Part shown: in pieces, positions 10,615-42,023 of the stretch
Position numbering within the stretch: position 1 is the first letter of the stretch
How the letters are laid out: each line of letters opens with the position of its first letter
From: Escherichia coli
Lineage (GTDB): Bacteria > Pseudomonadota > Gammaproteobacteria > Enterobacterales > Enterobacteriaceae
Reading direction: 5' to 3' (one strand)
Length of the DNA stretch: 64,000 nt
Assembly (NCBI RefSeq): GCF_003790525.1
Contig: NZ_CP033635.1
Translations under genes and position numbers: made by a program
The notes under the pieces: generated by a model
Databases searched by the model: none
What the model was told of the DNA's origin: nothing
Seen by the model: the letters and a program-made list of their open reading frames with translations, nothing else

Positions 10615-12112
10615 AGTGCTCCTCCCGATGATGTAATGGCATCACGCCTTCTTGCTGTAATTTCAACTGATACCAGCTTTTCCATTTGTGCTGATAACGC
10701 TGTAATTGATGGTATCTCGCCCGATTCGGTAACAAACGTTGGGCTATGGTGACTTGCGGCGGTGGAATATCCGGTGCGGCGGTTAATAATGCTCCGACAG
10801 AAACCGCCTCGTTAAATGCAATTGCTTCAACCGGACGCTGTAAAATATCCGCCTTTAATTGCAGCCAAAGGGGATTACGGGTTGCCGGACCTATCACTTT
10901 TAACGCGCTGGTGCCGGGCACATTAAAACAGGCGAAGCAGTTGGCAAATTCCATGGTTAATCCCAGTGAGACGCTGGCAATTAACATATCGATATTTAAC
11001 GTATCGCCAAGCCCATAAAATAATCCTCGGGTATGGCGATTTTTATAGGGCGAACCCGAACCGCGAAGATGCGGAATAAAAACGGGAATGTCATCGAGCG
11101 ACCAGTTCCCCGCCAGGTAATCCGCATGTCCGCGAGTAAGTGATGCGGCGATCTCCTCATCGGTTAGCCGGAACGTGTTGCGCAGCCACTCCAGAGCGAA
11201 ACCGCCCACCGGCAGCGACGCAAACAGGGTGAACTGGTTTGCAAGCGAATAACAGCCGTTTGCCAGCTTGTCACGTTTGGCATGTTCATCCAGCGTCGGT
11301 TGTGTATCCAGTTGCAGAATGCCTTCTGTGGTGCCCGTCGAGTTAAGGATATCGCCCGGCGTCATCTGCAACGCCCGCGCACCCACCATATGGTCATGCC
11401 CGGCCAGCGTCACGCTGACCGGTTGCAAGAACCCAAGCGTTTTGCAGAGCGACTCGCTGACCCATCCGGCGTGCTCGCCTGGCTGCACCAATGGCGCAAA
11501 TGCTGAACAGGGAACGTGTAACAACGCCGCCGCTTTCGCTGACCATTCGCCTTTACGCACGTCCAGACACAGCGTACGGCTGGCTAAGGTGATATCCGTA
11601 CGCTGTTCGCCAGTCAGCCGCCAGAGCAGTACTTCCGGCGCATGTAGCCAACGCAGGCCGCGGCGATTACGCAGTGGATAATGCTCCAGCAACCAACGCA
11701 TTTTGAAGGCAGAGTAATTGCTGTGCAGCGGTAGCCCGCAGATGTCATAAAGCGCCGCACTGTCTGCCTCACTAAGCGTTGCCAGGTACTCTTCACCGCG
11801 GCGGTCATACCATGCCAGCATTGGCGTCAGGATCTCGCCATGCTCGTCAAGAAACACCCCTGACTCGCCAAAACTGGCAATGCTTATCCGCCTGACCGGC
11901 AGCGGCGAAGCGGCGCTCAGTTGCGCTATTGCCTGGCGGACCTCCTGCCAGAGGGCGTCGATATCGAAATCGACATCGCCCTGTGGGGAGATCTGTTTTG
12001 CCGTCACGAATTTATGCGCGCCCAACGTCGTTGCATCCAGGCAGGAAAAGCAGGTGACTTTGCAATTGGTGGTGCCAATATCGATAACGATAGCTGCGCT
12101 GTTATCAGGCAT
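10604..12112 (-). CDS. FGGY-family carbohydrate kinase (xylulokinase/glycerol kinase superfamily), substrate unknown
   Basis: 502 aa; N-terminal IDIGTTNCK motif and FGGY C-terminal domain; overlaps neighbouring genes by 8-11 nt. Confidence 0.8.
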   Translation of the reverse strand: MPDNSAAIVIDIGTTNCKVTCFSCLDATTLGAHKFVTAKQISPQGDVDFDIDALWQEVRQAIAQLSAASPLPVRRISIASFGESGVFLDEHGEILTPMLAWYDRRGEEYLATLSEADSAALYDICGLPLHSNYSAFKMRWLLEHYPLRNRRGLRWLHAPEVLLWRLTGEQRTDITLASRTLCLDVRKGEWSAKAAALLHVPCSAFAPLVQPGEHAGWVSESLCKTLGFLQPVSVTLAGHDHMVGARALQMTPGDILNSTGTTEGILQLDTQPTLDEHAKRDKLANGCYSLANQFTLFASLPVGGFALEWLRNTFRLTDEEIAASLTRGHADYLAGNWSLDDIPVFIPHLRGSGSPYKNRHTRGLFYGLGDTLNIDMLIASVSLGLTMEFANCFACFNVPGTSALKVIGPATRNPLWLQLKADILQRPVEAIAFNEAVSVGALLTAAPDIPPPQVTIAQRLLPNRARYHQLQRYQHKWKSWYQLKLQQEGVMPLHHREEHYVE

Positions 12113-13463
12113 AAACCGTGCTCCGCGTCATTCGGAAAATGCCATACAGTACCAGGGCGATAACCGGCACCAGACCAATGGCGATGAGATTGCCGTTGAA
12201 GATTTCCAGCAGCCAGAAGCGGAACGGGTTACCGCCATCAAGGAAACTGGAAACCTGGCCGCTGGAGCCTTCGGCAAATTTGAAGTTAACGTCTTTCGCC
12301 ATTCCGGTAATAAACGGCGCGATTTTAGTGGCAATCCACAGGTCGGCAATAATCACCGGGATCGCCGCCAGAACGGTGCGGAAAATATTGCCACGGCTGG
12401 CTAAAGCAATCATCGACGCCATTACCGCCAGGTTGGCAAGGTCACCAAGCGGCAGGACTTCATTACCTGGGAGGACAAACGCGATAAAGACCGAGATTGG
12501 CGTCAGCAGCAGGGCGGTGGAGATAATCGCCGGGTTACCTACGGCAACGGCGATATCCAGGCCGATATAGAGATCGTCACGGTCAGGGTATTTGGCATTG
12601 AGATACTTTTTAATGGCTTCAGACAGCGGTAATAAACCTTCCATCAGGATGCGTACCATGCGTGGCAGGATGAACATCACACCGCCAATGCTGATGCCAA
12701 GCAGCAAGACTTTTTTGAAATCGTATCCGGCAATTACGCCGAGCAGAATGCCCAGAATAGTGCCAACCATCATCGGTTCGCCGAAGATGCCAAACTTTTT
12801 CTGTACGGTTTCCGGGTCGATATGAATACGATTGAGGCCAGGGATATGGTCGATGATTTTGTCGACCAGCAGACCGACCGGGAAGAACACCACCGAAGAG
12901 AGCGTCGGCAATGAGATCCCTTCCAGGCCAAAGTATTTTTGTACCAGTGGCGCAGACCAGTCGGCGAGTTTTAGCACCACCACTGCGGCAATCGCGGCCG
13001 CCAGCAAACCAAAGAACAGGCTGCCGGTGCTGTAATAAACCAGCGTACCGGCAAGGGCAAAATGCCAGTAGTTCCACATATCTACATCAACGGTGCGGGT
13101 TTTATTCAACGCCAGCATTGCGACATTAATCAGAATGGTCAGGGGAATAACAAACGGGGCAATTGGCGACCCCCAGGTAATGGCAGAAAGCGGCGGCCAG
13201 CCTAAATCCACCACCGGTAAATTAATTCCGGTGCGTTCAACCATCGCCTGGGCCGCTGGCCCGACATTGCTGGTAAGAATATCGAAAATGGCATAAATAC
13301 CGACAAAACCAATGCCGACCGTTAATGACGAGCGTAAGGCTTTAGCGGGTTTTACTTTAAAACAGAGAGCAAGAATAAATAACACCAACGGCAACATTAC
13401 CGTGGGGCCAAATCCCAATATATATTGCACAATATTATAGAGGGTATGCGCGATATCGTTCAT
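12105..13463 (-). CDS. PTS EIIC component, galactitol (Gat) family
   Basis: Multi-TM protein with GatC-like motifs (GPTVMLP, LGWPP...TWGS, FGEPMMVG). Start set at the ATG preceded by AAGAGG (13463) rather than the GTG at 13493. Confidence 0.85.
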   Translation of the reverse strand: MNDIAHTLYNIVQYILGFGPTVMLPLVLFILALCFKVKPAKALRSSLTVGIGFVGIYAIFDILTSNVGPAAQAMVERTGINLPVVDLGWPPLSAITWGSPIAPFVIPLTILINVAMLALNKTRTVDVDMWNYWHFALAGTLVYYSTGSLFFGLLAAAIAAVVVLKLADWSAPLVQKYFGLEGISLPTLSSVVFFPVGLLVDKIIDHIPGLNRIHIDPETVQKKFGIFGEPMMVGTILGILLGVIAGYDFKKVLLLGISIGGVMFILPRMVRILMEGLLPLSEAIKKYLNAKYPDRDDLYIGLDIAVAVGNPAIISTALLLTPISVFIAFVLPGNEVLPLGDLANLAVMASMIALASRGNIFRTVLAAIPVIIADLWIATKIAPFITGMAKDVNFKFAEGSSGQVSSFLDGGNPFRFWLLEIFNGNLIAIGLVPVIALVLYGIFRMTRSTVYA

Positions 13464-13536
13464 AATAAACCTCTTTTTCAGGCGAGAGCGCACCTCGCGT
13501 TAGCGCCTGATGGAGTGGGTTGGAATTAATTATTAA

Positions 13537-13818
13537 TTACTTTTTAAGAATCGAAACAATTTGCGCCAGCACTTTCTCTTCGCCAATACCGGTAATAATG
13601 GGTAAGCCGTTAACCACCGGCACGTCGAGTTCATAAGGCACTTTAGTCGTTGAAACAACCAGCGCTACGCCGTCGGTATTACCGGGTAAAGAGGCAACGT
13701 TGGTTTGGGAATAATTGACGTTAAGGCCGTGCTCTTTGCAATACTCCATGACTTTTTCTGTTACCGCCGTGGATGTGGCAATACCTGTGGCGCAGACAAA
13801 TAAAATGGTTTGACTCAT
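13537..13818 (-). CDS. PTS EIIB component, galactitol family
   Basis: 93 aa; phosphorylation-site Cys in LFVCATGIATS; start overlaps the EIIA stop. Confidence 0.85.
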   Translation of the reverse strand: MSQTILFVCATGIATSTAVTEKVMEYCKEHGLNVNYSQTNVASLPGNTDGVALVVSTTKVPYELDVPVVNGLPIITGIGEEKVLAQIVSILKK

Positions 13819-14288
13819 ATTTCACCTCGTTCATTCATTTTGTTTAAGATTACTGTGTGTATTTCTGTTGTTTCCATCGTAAGCAAGGCTTGCATAAAGG
13901 GCGTATCCTGAATCATCTCCATAATCCAGCCCAGGGCATTTAATTGTTTGTTACTTTCGCTTAAGGCGAGCAAAAAAATCACCCTGACAGGCACGGGATC
14001 AGGGTCGCCGCCCATATCGGCAAACTCTACCGGCTCTGGCAAAATACCGACGGCAATTGCATTGTGCCGGACATGTTTATGGTCCGTGTGCGGAATGGCG
14101 ACGCACGGTGGTTCGGTAGGCAGCCCCGTTGGATACGTCGCCTCACGTTTCAGTACGTGATTGGCAAAATCAGGGACCACCAGCTCAGCAGCAACCAACG
14201 GTTGCGCTAACTGACGGATGATCTGTTCAACGCTTAACCCTGCCGGAAGTCGTTGAATATAATTTTCCTGAAACTGTATGCCTTGCAT
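13815..14288 (-). CDS. PTS EIIA component (type-2 EIIA fold, GatA-like)
   Basis: About 157 aa with a conserved His region (AIPHTDH). Start placed at the second ATG, which has a GAGGAA RBS; the ORF track extends to 14300. Confidence 0.8.
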   Translation of the reverse strand: MQGIQFQENYIQRLPAGLSVEQIIRQLAQPLVAAELVVPDFANHVLKREATYPTGLPTEPPCVAIPHTDHKHVRHNAIAVGILPEPVEFADMGGDPDPVPVRVIFLLALSESNKQLNALGWIMEMIQDTPFMQALLTMETTEIHTVILNKMNERGEI

Positions 14289-14312
14289 TTTATTCCTCAT
14301 AAAAAAGTGTAT

Positions 14313-15068
14313 TTAACTCACTTCCCGCCGTTGCAGCACGGTGCCCAGATAATATTTATTTCCTTTTAACCAGACGTTGCCAAACTCAACGGGTAACTCT
14401 CGGGAGAAAAAGACTAACTGCTCCAGATGCAAAACGGGTGCATCTTCACTGATATCTAAAAAATGACCGCGTTCATTACCAATTAATCGCGCGGCATAGC
14501 GACTTTCCGAGTAACGAATTTTTCTTTGCGACAAACTTTCTATTGTTGGAAATAAATTGTGTTGATTAAAATCGATTTCCACGATGCCGGGGCATAGCTC
14601 AATATTGATACGGTTCTCTATCAGCATCGCTTTTTCATCACCAATTGAACGTAAACGCTCAAGGTAAAGAATATCCTGACCGGGCGTTATTCTTAATTTC
14701 TCTGCCACATAACGATTAGCCGGTTCAATCCGTGACGTAATAACTTCAGTGGTAAAATGTATTTTCTGGCTTTCCAGCGATTCCGCGAATGACAATAATC
14801 CTTCACCTAACGGATATGCCACGTTCTCTTTTTTGACAAAAGTTCCCTTCCCCTGGACCTGAATCAACACGCCTTCTTTTACCAGTTGGGCGACCGCTTT
14901 TTTAACGGTTCCCCGACTCACTTCCAGCATATCCATAATCTGGTATTCCGAAGGAATGCGATCGTCTTCCACCAGATCCCCGGTATAAATACTTTCTCTT
15001 ATCCACTCCACCACTTGTTGATAGAGCGGTATTTGTGACGACTTACTTAATGATTTCATGGCGCGCAC
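14313..15068 (-). CDS. GntR/HutC-family transcriptional regulator with UTRA effector domain; probable regulator of the adjacent PTS operon
   Basis: 251 aa; N-terminal wHTH (SEYQIMDMLEVSRGTVKKAVAQLVKEGVL) and C-terminal UTRA-like domain. Confidence 0.85.
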   Translation of the reverse strand: MRAMKSLSKSSQIPLYQQVVEWIRESIYTGDLVEDDRIPSEYQIMDMLEVSRGTVKKAVAQLVKEGVLIQVQGKGTFVKKENVAYPLGEGLLSFAESLESQKIHFTTEVITSRIEPANRYVAEKLRITPGQDILYLERLRSIGDEKAMLIENRINIELCPGIVEIDFNQHNLFPTIESLSQRKIRYSESRYAARLIGNERGHFLDISEDAPVLHLEQLVFFSRELPVEFGNVWLKGNKYYLGTVLQRREVS

Positions 15069-15080
15069 CTGAACATTTAC

Positions 15081-15108
15081 AGTTGTCTATGGACAATCAT
15101 GGACAACT
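15081..15108. promoter_or_regulatory. Nested palindrome AGTTGTC-N14-GACAACT / TTGTC-N4-GACAA, candidate operator of the GntR/HutC regulator
   Basis: Perfect inverted repeats 13-40 bp upstream of the regulator start codon. Confidence 0.5.
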
Positions 15109-15223
15109 TCAAGCGTATAGTAGGTGAACGGGAGAAAAAGAGGATCGAAGCGTCTCACATTTTGAGGGACCAAATCGTGATCAAAAAAATGTGACGTGAG
15201 TCGATATTTGGCAGGAATTTACT

Positions 15224-15246
15224 GCGCCGTCAGGAAATAACGGCGC
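15224..15246 (-). terminator. Hairpin (GCGCCGT/ACGGCGC) just downstream of the nikR stop
   Basis: 7-bp inverted repeat; weak T tract on the minus strand. Confidence 0.35.
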
Positions 15247-15257
15247 GTGGGTAGGTG

Positions 15258-18061
<2,804 letters not shown>

Positions 18062-39270: not shown

Positions 39271-40544
39271 AACCGATGCATATTGCAATGGCGCTGCTCT
39301 CTGCCGCCATGTTCTTTGTGCTGGCGGGCGTCTTTATGGGCGTGCAACTGGAGCTGGATGGCACCAAACTGGTGGTCGACACGGCTTCAGAGATCCGTTG
39401 GCAGTGGGTGTTTATCGGCACGGCGGTGGTCTTTTTTTTCCAGCTTTTGCGACCGGCTTTCCAGAAAGGGCTAAAAAGCGTTTCCGGGCCGAAGTTTATT
39501 CTGCCCGCGATTGATGGCTCCACGGTGAAGCAAAAGCTGTTTCTCGTGGCGCTGCTGGTGCTTGCGGTGGCGTGGCCGTTTATGGTTTCACGTGGGACGG
39601 TGGATATCGCCACCCTGACCATGATCTACATTATTCTCGGTCTCGGGCTGAACGTGGTGGTAGGTCTTTCTGGTCTGCTGGTGCTGGGATACGGCGGTTT
39701 TTACGCTATCGGCGCTTACACTTTTGCGCTGCTCAATCACTATTACGGCTTGGGCTTCTGGACCTGTCTGCCGATTGCCGGGTTGATGGCGGCGGCGGCG
39801 GGCTTCCTGCTCGGTTTTCCGGTGCTGCGTCTGCGCGGTGACTATCTGGCGATCGTTACCCTCGGGTTCGGCGAAATCGTGCGCATATTGCTGCTCAATA
39901 ACACCGAAATTACCGGCGGCCCGAACGGAATCAGTCAGATCCCGAAACCGACTTTCTTCGGCCTTGAGTTCAGCCGTACCGCCCGTGAAGGCGGCTGGGA
40001 CACGTTCAGCAATTTCTTTGGCCTGAAATACGATCCCTCCGATCGCGTCATCTTCCTCTACCTGGTGGCGTTGCTGCTGGTGGTGTTAAGCCTGTTTGTC
40101 ATTAACCGCCTGCTGCGGATGCCGCTGGGGCGTGCGTGGGAAGCGTTGCGTGAAGATGAAATCGCTTGTCGTTCGCTGGGCTTAAGCCCGCGTCGTATCA
40201 AGCTGACTGCCTTTACCATCAGCGCTGCGTTTGCCGGTTTTGCCGGAACGTTGTTTGCTGCGCGTCAGGGCTTTGTCAGCCCGGAATCCTTCACCTTTGC
40301 CGAATCGGCGTTTGTGCTGGCGATAGTGGTGCTCGGCGGTATGGGCTCGCAATTTGCGGTAATTCTGGCGGCAATTTTGCTGGTGGTGTCGCGCGAATTG
40401 ATGCGTGATTTCAACGAATACAGCATGTTAATGCTTGGTGGTTTGATGGTGCTGATGATGATCTGGCGTCCGCAGGGCTTGCTGCCCATGACGCGCCCGC
40501 AACTCAAGCTGAAGAACGGCGCAGCGAAAGGAGAGCAGGCATGA
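39267..40544 (+). CDS. livM: Branched-chain amino acid ABC permease LivM
   Basis: 425 aa; overlaps livH and livG (ATGA). Confidence 0.93.
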
Positions 40545-41308
40545 GTCAGCCATTATTATCTGTTAACGGCTTGATGATGCGCTTCGGCGGCCTGCTGGCG
40601 GTGAACAACGTCAATCTTGAACTGTACCCGCAGGAGATCGTCTCGTTAATCGGCCCTAACGGTGCCGGAAAAACCACGGTCTTCAACTGCCTGACCGGAT
40701 TCTATAAACCCACCGGCGGCACCATTTTACTGCGCGATCAGCATCTGGAAGGTTTACCGGGGCAGCAAATCGCCCGAATGGGCGTGGTGCGCACCTTCCA
40801 GCATGTGCGTCTGTTCCGTGAAATGACGGTAATTGAAAACCTGCTGGTGGCGCAGCATCAGCAACTGAAAACCGGGCTGTTCTCTGGCCTGTTGAAAACG
40901 CCTTCTTTCCGTCGCGCCCAGAGCGAAGCGCTCGACCGCGCCGCTACCTGGCTTGAGCGCATTGGTTTGTTGGAACACGCCAACCGTCAGGCGAGTAACC
41001 TGGCCTATGGCGACCAGCGTCGTCTGGAGATCGCCCGCTGCATGGTGACGCAGCCGGAGATTTTAATGCTCGACGAACCGGCAGCAGGACTTAACCCGAA
41101 AGAGACGAAAGAGCTGGATGAGCTGATTGCCGAACTGCGTAATCATCACAACACCACTATCTTGTTGATTGAACACGATATGAAGCTGGTGATGGGAATT
41201 TCAGACCGAATTTACGTGGTCAATCAGGGGACGCCGCTGGCAAACGGTACACCGGAGCAGATCCGTAATAACCCGGACGTGATCCGTGCCTATTTAGGTG
41301 AGGCATAA
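40541..41308 (+). CDS. livG: Branched-chain amino acid ABC ATPase LivG
   Basis: 255 aa; Walker [10 protein letters not shown]. Confidence 0.93.
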
Positions 41309-41309
41309 G

Positions 41310-42023
41310 ATGGAAAAAGTCATGTTGTCCTTTGACAAAGTCAGCGCCCACTACGGCAAAATCCAGGCGCTGCATGAGGTGAGCCTGCATATCAATCAGG
41401 GCGAGATTGTCACCCTCATTGGCGCGAACGGGGCGGGGAAAACCACCTTGCTCGGCACGTTATGCGGCGATCCGCGCGCCACCAGTGGGCGAATTGTGTT
41501 TGATGATAAAGACATTACCGACTGGCAGACAGCGAAAATCATGCGCGAAGCGGTGGCGATTGTTCCGGAAGGGCGTCGTGTTTTCTCGCGGATGACGGTG
41601 GAAGAGAACCTGGCAATGGGCGGCTTTTTTGCCGAACGCGACCAGTTCCAGGAACGCATAAAGTGGGTGTATGAACTGTTTCCGCGTCTCCATGAACGCC
41701 GTGTTCAGCGGGCGGGCACCATGTCCGGCGGTGAGCAGCAGATGCTGGCGATTGGGCGCGCGCTGATGAGCAACCCGCGTTTGTTGTTGCTTGATGAGCC
41801 ATCGCTCGGGCTGGCACCGATTATCATCCAGCAAATTTTCGACACCATCGAACAACTGCGCGAGCAGGGGATGACCATCTTCCTCGTCGAGCAGAACGCC
41901 AACCAGGCGCTGAAGCTCGCTGATCGCGGCTACGTGCTGGAAAACGGTCATGTGGTGCTCTCCGATACTGGTGATGCACTACTGGCGAATGAAGCGGTGA
42001 GAAGTGCGTATTTAGGCGGGTAA
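41310..42023 (+). CDS. livF: Branched-chain amino acid ABC ATPase LivF
   Basis: Start at MEKVMLSFD (237 aa); Walker A GANGAGKTT. Confidence 0.93.
   Translation: MEKVMLSFDKVSAHYGKIQALHEVSLHINQGEIVTLIGANGAGKTTLLGTLCGDPRATSGRIVFDDKDITDWQTAKIMREAVAIVPEGRRVFSRMTVEENLAMGGFFAERDQFQERIKWVYELFPRLHERRVQRAGTMSGGEQQMLAIGRALMSNPRLLLLDEPSLGLAPIIIQQIFDTIEQLREQGMTIFLVEQNANQALKLADRGYVLENGHVVLSDTGDALLANEAVRSAYLGG

Follow-up and report, generated by a model that had tools for sequence, protein, structure and literature searches.

A predicted operator of a GntR/HutC-type regulator ahead of an accessory galactitol-family PTS operon in Escherichia coli

The window, a stretch of 64,000 nucleotides from the E. coli contig NZ_CP033635.1 (assembly GCF_003790525.1), carries next to nikR an operon for sugar uptake. 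On the minus strand the genes follow in the order regulator, PTS IIA, IIB, IIC, FGGY kinase, HPr-like protein and class II ketose-bisphosphate aldolase. Annotation, Pfam and NCBIfam place the IIA, IIB and IIC proteins in the galactitol-family PTS. Between the nikR stop codon (15258) and the regulator ATG (15059), both on the minus strand, lies an intergenic region of 198 bp with the predicted regulatory elements considered here. The features of the locus are as follows.

9453 to 14300, minus strand: operon genes downstream of the regulator, identified by annotation and by Pfam and NCBIfam matches
14313 to 15059, minus strand: gene for the GntR/HutC-type regulator (248 aa), the first of the operon (RefSeq: GntR family regulator)
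15060 to 15080, minus strand: 5' leader, unusually conserved, with a Shine-Dalgarno AGGTG at 15070-15066
15081 to 15108, minus strand: predicted operator of 28 nt, AGTTGTCCATGATTGTCCATAGACAACT on the coding strand, delimited by its dyads and its conservation
15083 to 15096, no strand assigned: inner 14-bp palindrome TTGTC(C/T)AT(A/G)GACAA, the core dyad, which in the window reads TTGTC-N4-GACAA
15117 to 15122, minus strand: predicted -10 hexamer TACTAT, a TAnnAT column in the alignment
15144 to 15159, minus strand: proximal CRP-like site TGTGA GACGCT TCGAT, an exact occurrence of the TGTGA-N6-TCGAT pattern, centred at 15151.5
15190 to 15205, plus strand: distal CRP-like site TGTGA CGTGAG TCGAT, centred at 15197.5

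The stop codon of the regulator lies 24 nt from the annotated start of IIA, and this gap contains neither a minus-strand promoter match nor a terminator match. Given that the regulator is also the first gene, an operator ahead of it probably controls the whole PTS operon, beyond the regulator alone.

The operon is an accessory sugar-uptake island adjoining nikR, and is also present in many other Enterobacterales. E. coli K-12 does not have the cluster, so that CRP data sets from K-12 do not extend to this promoter. Its sequence and that of the window diverge exactly at the nikR stop codon, where K-12 has rhsB. The intergenic region was found in 1637 of 5426 complete E. coli genomes (about 30%), including O157:H7 and UM146 (B2), and E. 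coli SMS-3-5 is 100% identical to the window across the 1,401 bases queried (14300-15700). The island adjoins nikR in two genera, Escherichia and Citrobacter (C. amalonaticus). The literature yielded nothing relevant on the island (including under its O157 name, OI-139), on the locus or on the motif sequence. We considered whether the locus could be the published vpe PTS operon, and dropped this idea because vpe was placed beside the deoK operon, in a different island.

An earlier note on this DNA had described two nested dyads immediately upstream of the regulator start, AGTTGTC...GACAACT (7 bp, with 14-bp spacing) and an inner TTGTC-N4-GACAA. The sequence reads exactly so. On the plus strand the block is laid out as AGTTGTC (15081-15087), TATG (15088-15091), GACAA (15092-15096), TCATG (15097-15101) and GACAACT (15102-15108), so that the outer dyad AGTTGTC-N14-GACAACT spans 15081-15108 as a perfect 7-bp repeat around a 14-bp spacer. 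The block ends 21 nt from the regulator ATG. A repeat search of the block also detected arms of 11 nt with 91% complementarity and two copies of ATGGACAA in direct orientation, at 10-bp spacing. On the coding strand the same block appears as two direct 10-bp repeats, TTGTCCATGA and TTGTCCATAG, followed by the inverted arm. Expressed as half-sites on the minus strand, it comprises H1 (GTTG, 15107-15104), H2 (ATTG, 15097-15094) and H3 (CAAC, 15085-15082). H2 repeats H1 in the same orientation at a distance of 10 bp, and H3 faces H2 in inverted orientation across a spacer of 8 nt.

Taken from one sequence alone, the dyads are only mildly unusual, and in that respect suggestive. When the 198-bp intergenic region was shuffled 2000 times by dinucleotides, 12% of the shuffles had a perfect 7-bp inverted repeat whose arms were at most 20 nt apart, 4.6% had a 5-mer three times, in both orientations, within 28 nt, and 1.25% had the two features together. 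With up to two mismatches allowed, the outer dyad has a single occurrence across the 64-kb window, where 0.12 are expected. TTGTC-N4-GACAA, with up to one mismatch, was found four times against 2.0 expected, which is not significant. A second exact TTGTC-N4-GACAA at 41325-41338 was taken as chance: it lies where two coding ORFs overlap, has a different centre and falls outside the best matrix matches. It is thus the comparative evidence, rather than single-sequence statistics, that places these elements under selection.

A scan with one genome per species recovered 27 Enterobacterales loci whose regulators are 66-100% identical to that of the window. Nineteen of them make up group A, which includes Escherichia, Citrobacter, Enterobacter, Klebsiella, Pantoea, Rahnella, Cedecea and others. 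Eighteen have the order regulator-IIA-IIB-IIC-FGGY, with the aldolase inserted directly after the regulator in two of the 18, and the nineteenth, L020, is truncated within the regulator gene. Most group A members have unrelated genes upstream of the locus. The promoter alignment comprises 16 group A sequences, namely the window and 15 other loci, one per genus or distinct species, and gives the following mean pairwise identities.

DNA upstream of the distal CRP-like site (unalignable): 0.28
Interval from the proximal CRP-like site to the -10: 0.45
The two CRP-like 16-mers: 0.67-0.69
The 28-nt operator: 0.93
The 21-nt leader: 0.89
Regulator codon positions 1 and 2, first 30 codons: 0.92 each
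Regulator codon position 3, first 30 codons: 0.54

No other non-coding part of the promoter is as conserved over the 16 genera as the dyad block, and an identity of 0.93 in the operator as opposed to 0.54 at third codon positions indicates a constraint much stronger than that at synonymous sites. Each group A locus has a single such site, always ahead of the regulator. Over the 16 genera it keeps a fixed distance from the -10 and from the start codon amid unrelated flanking genes. The inner palindrome is free of mismatches in 15 of the 16 loci and has one mismatch in the other. Seven loci have it as a perfect palindrome, the central pair being T..A in six of these and C..G in the seventh, L012. 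Only Escherichia and Citrobacter amalonaticus have the complete 7-bp outer dyad, its innermost pair being broken in 14 of the 16 genera. Judged from this alignment, what is conserved is the 14-bp palindrome together with one additional half-site, in direct orientation, 10 bp upstream. Among nine Escherichia sequences about 20 columns vary, all of them upstream of the -10. None varies from the -10 to the ATG, and the operator block is invariant.

The remaining eight loci (Raoultella, Superficieibacter and some Enterobacter), with regulators 66-70% identical to that of the window, form group B and are rearranged. Here IIA-IIB-IIC-FGGY-Zn-dehydrogenase is followed by a separate intergenic region and then by regulator-aldolase-HPr, with another Zn-dehydrogenase further downstream. 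Given that the regulator is separated from the PTS genes, each of these loci should have two promoters. A weight matrix trained on the 16 group A operators only was run over both strands of five group B loci (12.7-20.7 kb). In all five the top match lies ahead of IIA, for example ACTTGAACATGGTTGTACATAGACAACC (z = 6.6-7.1), and the next independent match, again in all five, lies ahead of the regulator, ACTTGTTCATACTTGTATACAGATGATC (z = 5.0-5.7). Applied to the 64-kb window, the matrix ranks the operator itself first (z = 8.9), and no comparable match occurs elsewhere in that stretch. The motif thus recurs at both promoters of the rearranged locus in all five cases, and its recurrence in group B ties the predicted site to this regulator family. 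The winged-helix domains of groups A and B are 69% identical and share the same recognition helix, VSRGTVKKAV. Conservation at the group B PTS promoters covers the operator but not the leader to the start codon, which indicates that the constraint acts on a DNA site and not on a leader RNA. The site at the group B regulator promoter is without the inverted CAAC arm.

The regulator has a GntR winged-helix domain (PF00392, E = 4e-16) and a UTRA effector domain (PF07702, E = 1e-26). It falls under the cut-off of every named NCBIfam equivalog, and is thus an uncharacterised member of the family. The best characterised PDB match is NagR (YvoA; E = 2.6e-21), which, like DasR with its dre sites, combines a GntR winged-helix with UTRA, although protein identity between NagR and the regulator is only in the 25-30% range. 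In NagR each DNA-binding domain reads a 4-nt half-site, GTGG, with Arg48 contacting G-4, Arg38 contacting G-5 and Gly69 of the wing contacting G-7 (PMC4333415). In the alignment of the two proteins Arg49 corresponds to Arg48, Gly70 to Gly69 and Tyr39 to Arg38. The predicted operator likewise is palindromic and built from 4-nt half-sites with a G that would be read by the conserved Arg, and the wing Gly is kept. Unlike those of NagR, its half-sites are xTTG instead of GTGG, which matches the change from Arg38 to Tyr39. We infer that Tyr39 in place of Arg38 fits half-sites with T, not G, at -5. Two further differences from NagR are the spacer of 8 rather than 6 nt and the extra direct half-site 10 bp upstream.

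Half-sites are separated by 6 nt in dre sites, by 5 nt in those of FadR and by 6 or 8 nt in complexes of AraR, which retains only the equivalent of Arg48 of NagR (PMC4333415). The E. coli operator, ATTG-N8-CAAC, consists of inverted G-containing half-sites with a spacer inside this family range of 5-8 nt. AraR of Bacillus subtilis, the DNA-binding domain of which matches residues 7-75 of the regulator (E = 6.8e-12), resembles it in the one Arg kept and in the 8-nt spacer. However, AraR has an effector domain of the LacI type instead of UTRA, and its operators act in cooperative pairs.

MngR/FarR of E. coli, also of the HutC family, has operators made of tandem 10-bp direct repeats. Like it, the regulator described here belongs to the HutC family, is a predicted repressor of a PTS operon and is associated with direct repeats of 10-bp period (H1/H2, TTGTCCATGA TTGTCCATAG). 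In contrast to the MngR/FarR operators, the site here has a clear inverted arm that creates the 14-bp palindrome, and the repeat sequence differs. The consensus of the HutC subfamily is reportedly GT-N-TA-N-AC. The E. coli core, GTC-CATA-GAC, does not fit it, as it is 2 nt longer and satisfies only the general GT-Nx-AC. The site at the group B regulator promoter, TTGTATACAG, matches this consensus at 7 of 8 positions and is thus closer to it than the E. coli core.

On these grounds we suggest, with a probability of roughly three in four, that the adjacent GntR/HutC repressor uses the 28-nt block (15081-15108) as its operator, beside a CRP-dependent promoter. The earlier note had proposed the nested dyads as a candidate autoregulatory operator of this regulator, and the comparative evidence supports that reading of what is still a predicted site. 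The mechanism that we propose assigns to the site a binding protein, a direction of regulation, an effector and a dependence on CRP, each by prediction. In this scenario, a dimer of the regulator would bind the 14-bp palindrome TTGTCCATAGACAA through the half-sites ATTG and CAAC, 8 nt apart. The third half-site, GTTG, one helical turn upstream, may strengthen binding or recruit a second dimer. On the operator, the repressor would block initiation or promoter escape of the regulator-PTS-kinase-HPr-aldolase transcript, and with it the expression of the regulator itself. If NagR and other members of the HutC family are a guide, a phosphorylated sugar from the PTS pathway may bind the UTRA domain and release the repressor. 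Control of a PTS sugar pathway and an expected sugar-phosphate effector would be further points in common with NagR.

The position of the operator relative to the predicted promoter is consistent with repression. The TAnnAT hexamer is aligned at the same column in 14 of the 16 genera (in L016 it is one base closer, and L013 has TATGCT), and it lies 10 nt upstream of the first TTG of the operator, a distance that is fixed. Taking the start 7 nt after the hexamer, we infer that transcription begins near 15110, which would place the operator at about +2 to +30. This would be the position of a repressor operator, and with the operator just downstream of the -10, a bound repressor should block transcription. 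No -35 match occurs upstream of the -10. Consensus scans of 14900-15400 returned no sigma-70 promoter and no intrinsic terminator; a promoter of this type, without a -35, could not have been detected by the consensus scan.

The predicted promoter, which has no -35, probably needs cAMP-CRP. The proximal site, with its centre about 41.5 bp upstream of the predicted start, would be at the class II position and may activate, with help from the site 46 bp upstream. CRP activates from about -41.5 at class II promoters, and from -61.5, -72.5, -82.5 or -92.5 at class I promoters. At the proximal site the TGTGA half is present in 15 of the 16 genera and the promoter-proximal half is poorly conserved. 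The 21 nt between this site and the -10 are the same across all 16 sequences of the alignment, as are the 46 bp between the centres of the two sites. This inverted second copy of TGTGA-N6-TCGAT, at 15144-15159, was missed by the earlier note, which had reported one CRP-like element at about 15193-15208. That element is real but its coordinates were 3 nt off, the actual position being 15190-15205.

The distal site has no more than one mismatch to TGTGA-N6-TCACA in 13 of the 14 other genera, and three core mismatches in Escherichia and C. amalonaticus. The Klebsiella oxytoca promoter is among those with a consensus distal site. The suggestion that the element is a weak CRP-like match with a possible role in catabolite control is thereby strengthened, since its counterpart in those 13 genera would be a full consensus CRP site. 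For the same reason, the element in Escherichia appears to be a decayed version of a consensus site. Its centre would be at about -87.5 from the predicted start, which is not a standard class I distance, and we consider the proximal site to be probably the more likely activating site at this promoter. The island junction did not truncate the distal site, since the point where K-12 departs from the window, the nikR stop codon, lies upstream of it. A conserved TGTGA-N6-(G/A)C(A/G)CA occurs at the group B PTS promoters as well, about 60 bp upstream of the likely start. A conserved TGATC lies between the two CRP-like sites of group A. Visual comparison of this element to the motifs of FNR, Cra and CytR gave no convincing match.

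A rival reading concerns CRP in E. coli itself. The TGTGA-N6-TCGAT elements of Escherichia could be decayed and nonfunctional, or could be read by another protein of the CRP/FNR family, in which case there would be no CRP catabolite control in E. coli. A CRP site has a 16-bp core, TGTGA-N6-TCACA, between A/T-rich flanks. Both E. coli sites have 7 of the 10 core bases (three mismatches), with AAAA/TTTT flanks. Singly they are not above chance, they would not pass a usual threshold, and no CRP-like match with two or fewer mismatches was found in this region of the window. The predicted distal centre at -87.5 is also outside the canonical class I positions. However, the half-sites ATCGA, TCACA, TGTGA and TCGAT are invariant in the nine Escherichia sequences while the N6 spacers and surrounding bases vary, the geometry is the same in all 16 genera, and a promoter without a -35 would need an activator. 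Functional class II sites with poor halves are also known: galP1 has a poor promoter-proximal half, and deoP2 has TCGAA as its right half. We therefore regard loss of CRP control in E. coli as unlikely, but with enough weight to be kept in view.

The predicted promoter resembles CRP-dependent promoters with tandem CRP sites (class II/III, for example galP1 and deoP2) in that its TGTGA site with a weak promoter-proximal half would be near -41.5, in having no -35 and in having a second CRP-like site upstream. It differs from them in its 46-bp spacing, which would put the second site at about -87.5 and not at the usual -90.5 to -93.5, and in that no CytR-like element was recognised between the sites. 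A further difference is that both sites here are, in Escherichia, three mismatches from the core consensus.

The architecture of the operator may also be more elaborate than one dimer on one palindrome. In an alternative scenario, xTTG half-sites recurring at intervals of one helical turn would form an array, to which two dimers of the HutC type would bind cooperatively. The group A leader would then exert additional control, by offering a fourth contact or by folding into a hairpin over the Shine-Dalgarno that restricts how much regulator is translated. The Superficieibacter PTS promoter has a fully symmetric form with four half-sites, CTTG-N6-GTTG-N8-CAAC-N6-CAAC. In E. coli the third half-site is without a symmetric partner. 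We consider this combined scenario quite unlikely. If true, it would be new to the HutC subfamily, whose described operators are not known to be built in this way.

It is also conceivable that the dyad acts as RNA, forming a stem-loop at the 5' end of the mRNA (for stability or processing) together with a leader hairpin that hides the Shine-Dalgarno and the AUG. With a start near 15110 the dyad would be transcribed, and the predicted fold indeed has a 5' hairpin and a hairpin over the Shine-Dalgarno and AUG (-16.1 kcal/mol). The consensus fold retains both hairpins. L015 has one compensatory change, and in the leader helix U-A alternates with U-G. The leader identity of 0.89 suggests that part of the group A constraint could be due to RNA or translation. 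However, the folding z-score is -1.31, with 17 of 200 shuffles folding equally well, and covariation is no better than in shuffles (85 of 500 and 63 of 500). A permissive Rfam scan of 14800-15500 returned no match. The innermost pair of the outer stem is the one broken in 14 of 16 genera, and the symmetric T..A and C..G variants of the palindrome flank a centre of 2 nt, too short to close an RNA loop. In group B, moreover, the motif is conserved at PTS promoters with unrelated and unconserved leaders, and at the regulator promoter, which is without the 3' arm, the stem cannot form. An RNA function of the dyad is thus improbable, while a leader hairpin may exist alongside the operator.

Less probable still, in our opinion, is that the block is a real DNA site bound by another factor, such as a global regulator or a sugar-specific repressor encoded elsewhere. 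The mismatch to the compact HutC consensus speaks for this reading, and the conserved TGATC shows that the promoter contains further unexplained elements. However, the motif travels with the regulator family through two gene arrangements and many genomic contexts and occurs exactly at the promoters of the local genes. The form and spacing of its half-sites fit the contact residues of the GntR family that are retained here, and the 64-kb window has no other strong site. That the dyads are chance palindromes, or an att-like or terminal-repeat scar of island insertion without a regulatory role, is hardly credible: such repeats do arise in shuffles (12% and 1.25%, as above) and the region is at the edge of an accessory island, but the junction at the nikR stop codon is about 150 bp from the dyads and this, with conservation of the block in 16 genera across unrelated genomic contexts, excludes a scar, while the fixed distances and the recurrence at group B promoters also argue against chance.

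From the perspective of gene regulation, an operator, a -10 and CRP-like sites ahead of a local repressor gene are an ordinary bacterial promoter layout that would not surprise a specialist, and the regulator is an uncharacterised one. A defined operator together with the predicted promoter and CRP sites provides reagents (fragments, point mutations and reporters) with which to find the inducer, and the inducer in turn offers a route to the sugar used by this PTS system. The predicted pairing would also add to the recognition rules of GntR/HutC regulators an operator-regulator pair in which Tyr for Arg38 would go with T at -5 and an 8-nt spacer. The UTRA domain of this regulator is represented in the PDB by entry 3hfi, a structural-genomics deposit described as a 'putative regulator'.

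The operon beside nikR looks mosaic when its predicted proteins are compared with those of its relatives. The features considered here, with window coordinates, are:

8773-9403, hicA/hicB toxin-antitoxin pair flanking the far end of the island
9453-10313, aldolase, compared with loci L021, L022 and L024 of relatives
15060-15080, minus strand, 21-nt leader GTAAATGTTCAGGTGCGCGCC, extending to about 15030, considered for conservation and predicted fold
15178-15183, TGATCA element between the two CRP-like sites
15224-15246, perfect 7-bp stem GCGCCGT-N9-ACGGCGC directly past the nikR stop codon, within island-specific DNA

The E. coli aldolase shares 91% identity with its counterpart in the rearranged Raoultella and Superficieibacter loci, and only 72% with the one in the Enterobacter and Pantoea loci that have the same gene order as E. 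coli. For the other proteins, identity to the rearranged loci is lower (regulator ~70%, IIC 57%, HPr 44-51% and FGGY kinase 34-38%). This disparity in sequence identity suggests an exchange of the operon's 3' end between related systems. Five loci of group B, the rearranged relatives (L050 and L053-L056), each encode a pair of Zn-dependent dehydrogenases with no counterpart in the E. coli operon, which suggests that the group B loci act on a polyol and the E. coli version on a ketose.

The Superficieibacter PTS promoter (locus L053, 933-970) carries an operator with a fourth half-site, CTTG-AACATG-GTTG-TACATAGA-CAAC-CATAAC-CAAC, so that its four half-sites are fully symmetric, and in the other group B loci the weight matrix built from the 16 group A operators also scores the opposite strand, at an offset of +10. 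Within the window, a second exact TTGTC-N4-GACAA (TTGTCCTTTGACAA, 41325-41338) sits where two plus-strand ORFs overlap (40541-41308 and 41298-42023), and is probably a chance occurrence.

The leader between the operator and the regulator start codon has an identity of 0.89 across the 16 genera of group A, nearly matching the conservation of the operator. In the predicted fold, the leader could form a helix covering the Shine-Dalgarno AGGTG and the AUG; covariation in this helix was not significant. In many genera the stretch preceding the ATG is a perfect 10-bp palindrome, GGTGCGCACC.

Nearly all 16 genera keep the TGATC element, which contains a Dam GATC site and lies at a constant 7 nt past the distal TCACA. 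Visual comparison with the FNR, Cra and CytR motifs gave no convincing match.

In island-carrying strains, the nikR transcript may end at the 15224-15246 stem, which the terminator scan did not call because it lacks a T-run. A direct repeat with 16-nt copies at 15212-15227 and 15231-15246 overlaps this stem. At the other end of the island, hicA is frameshifted according to the RefSeq annotation.
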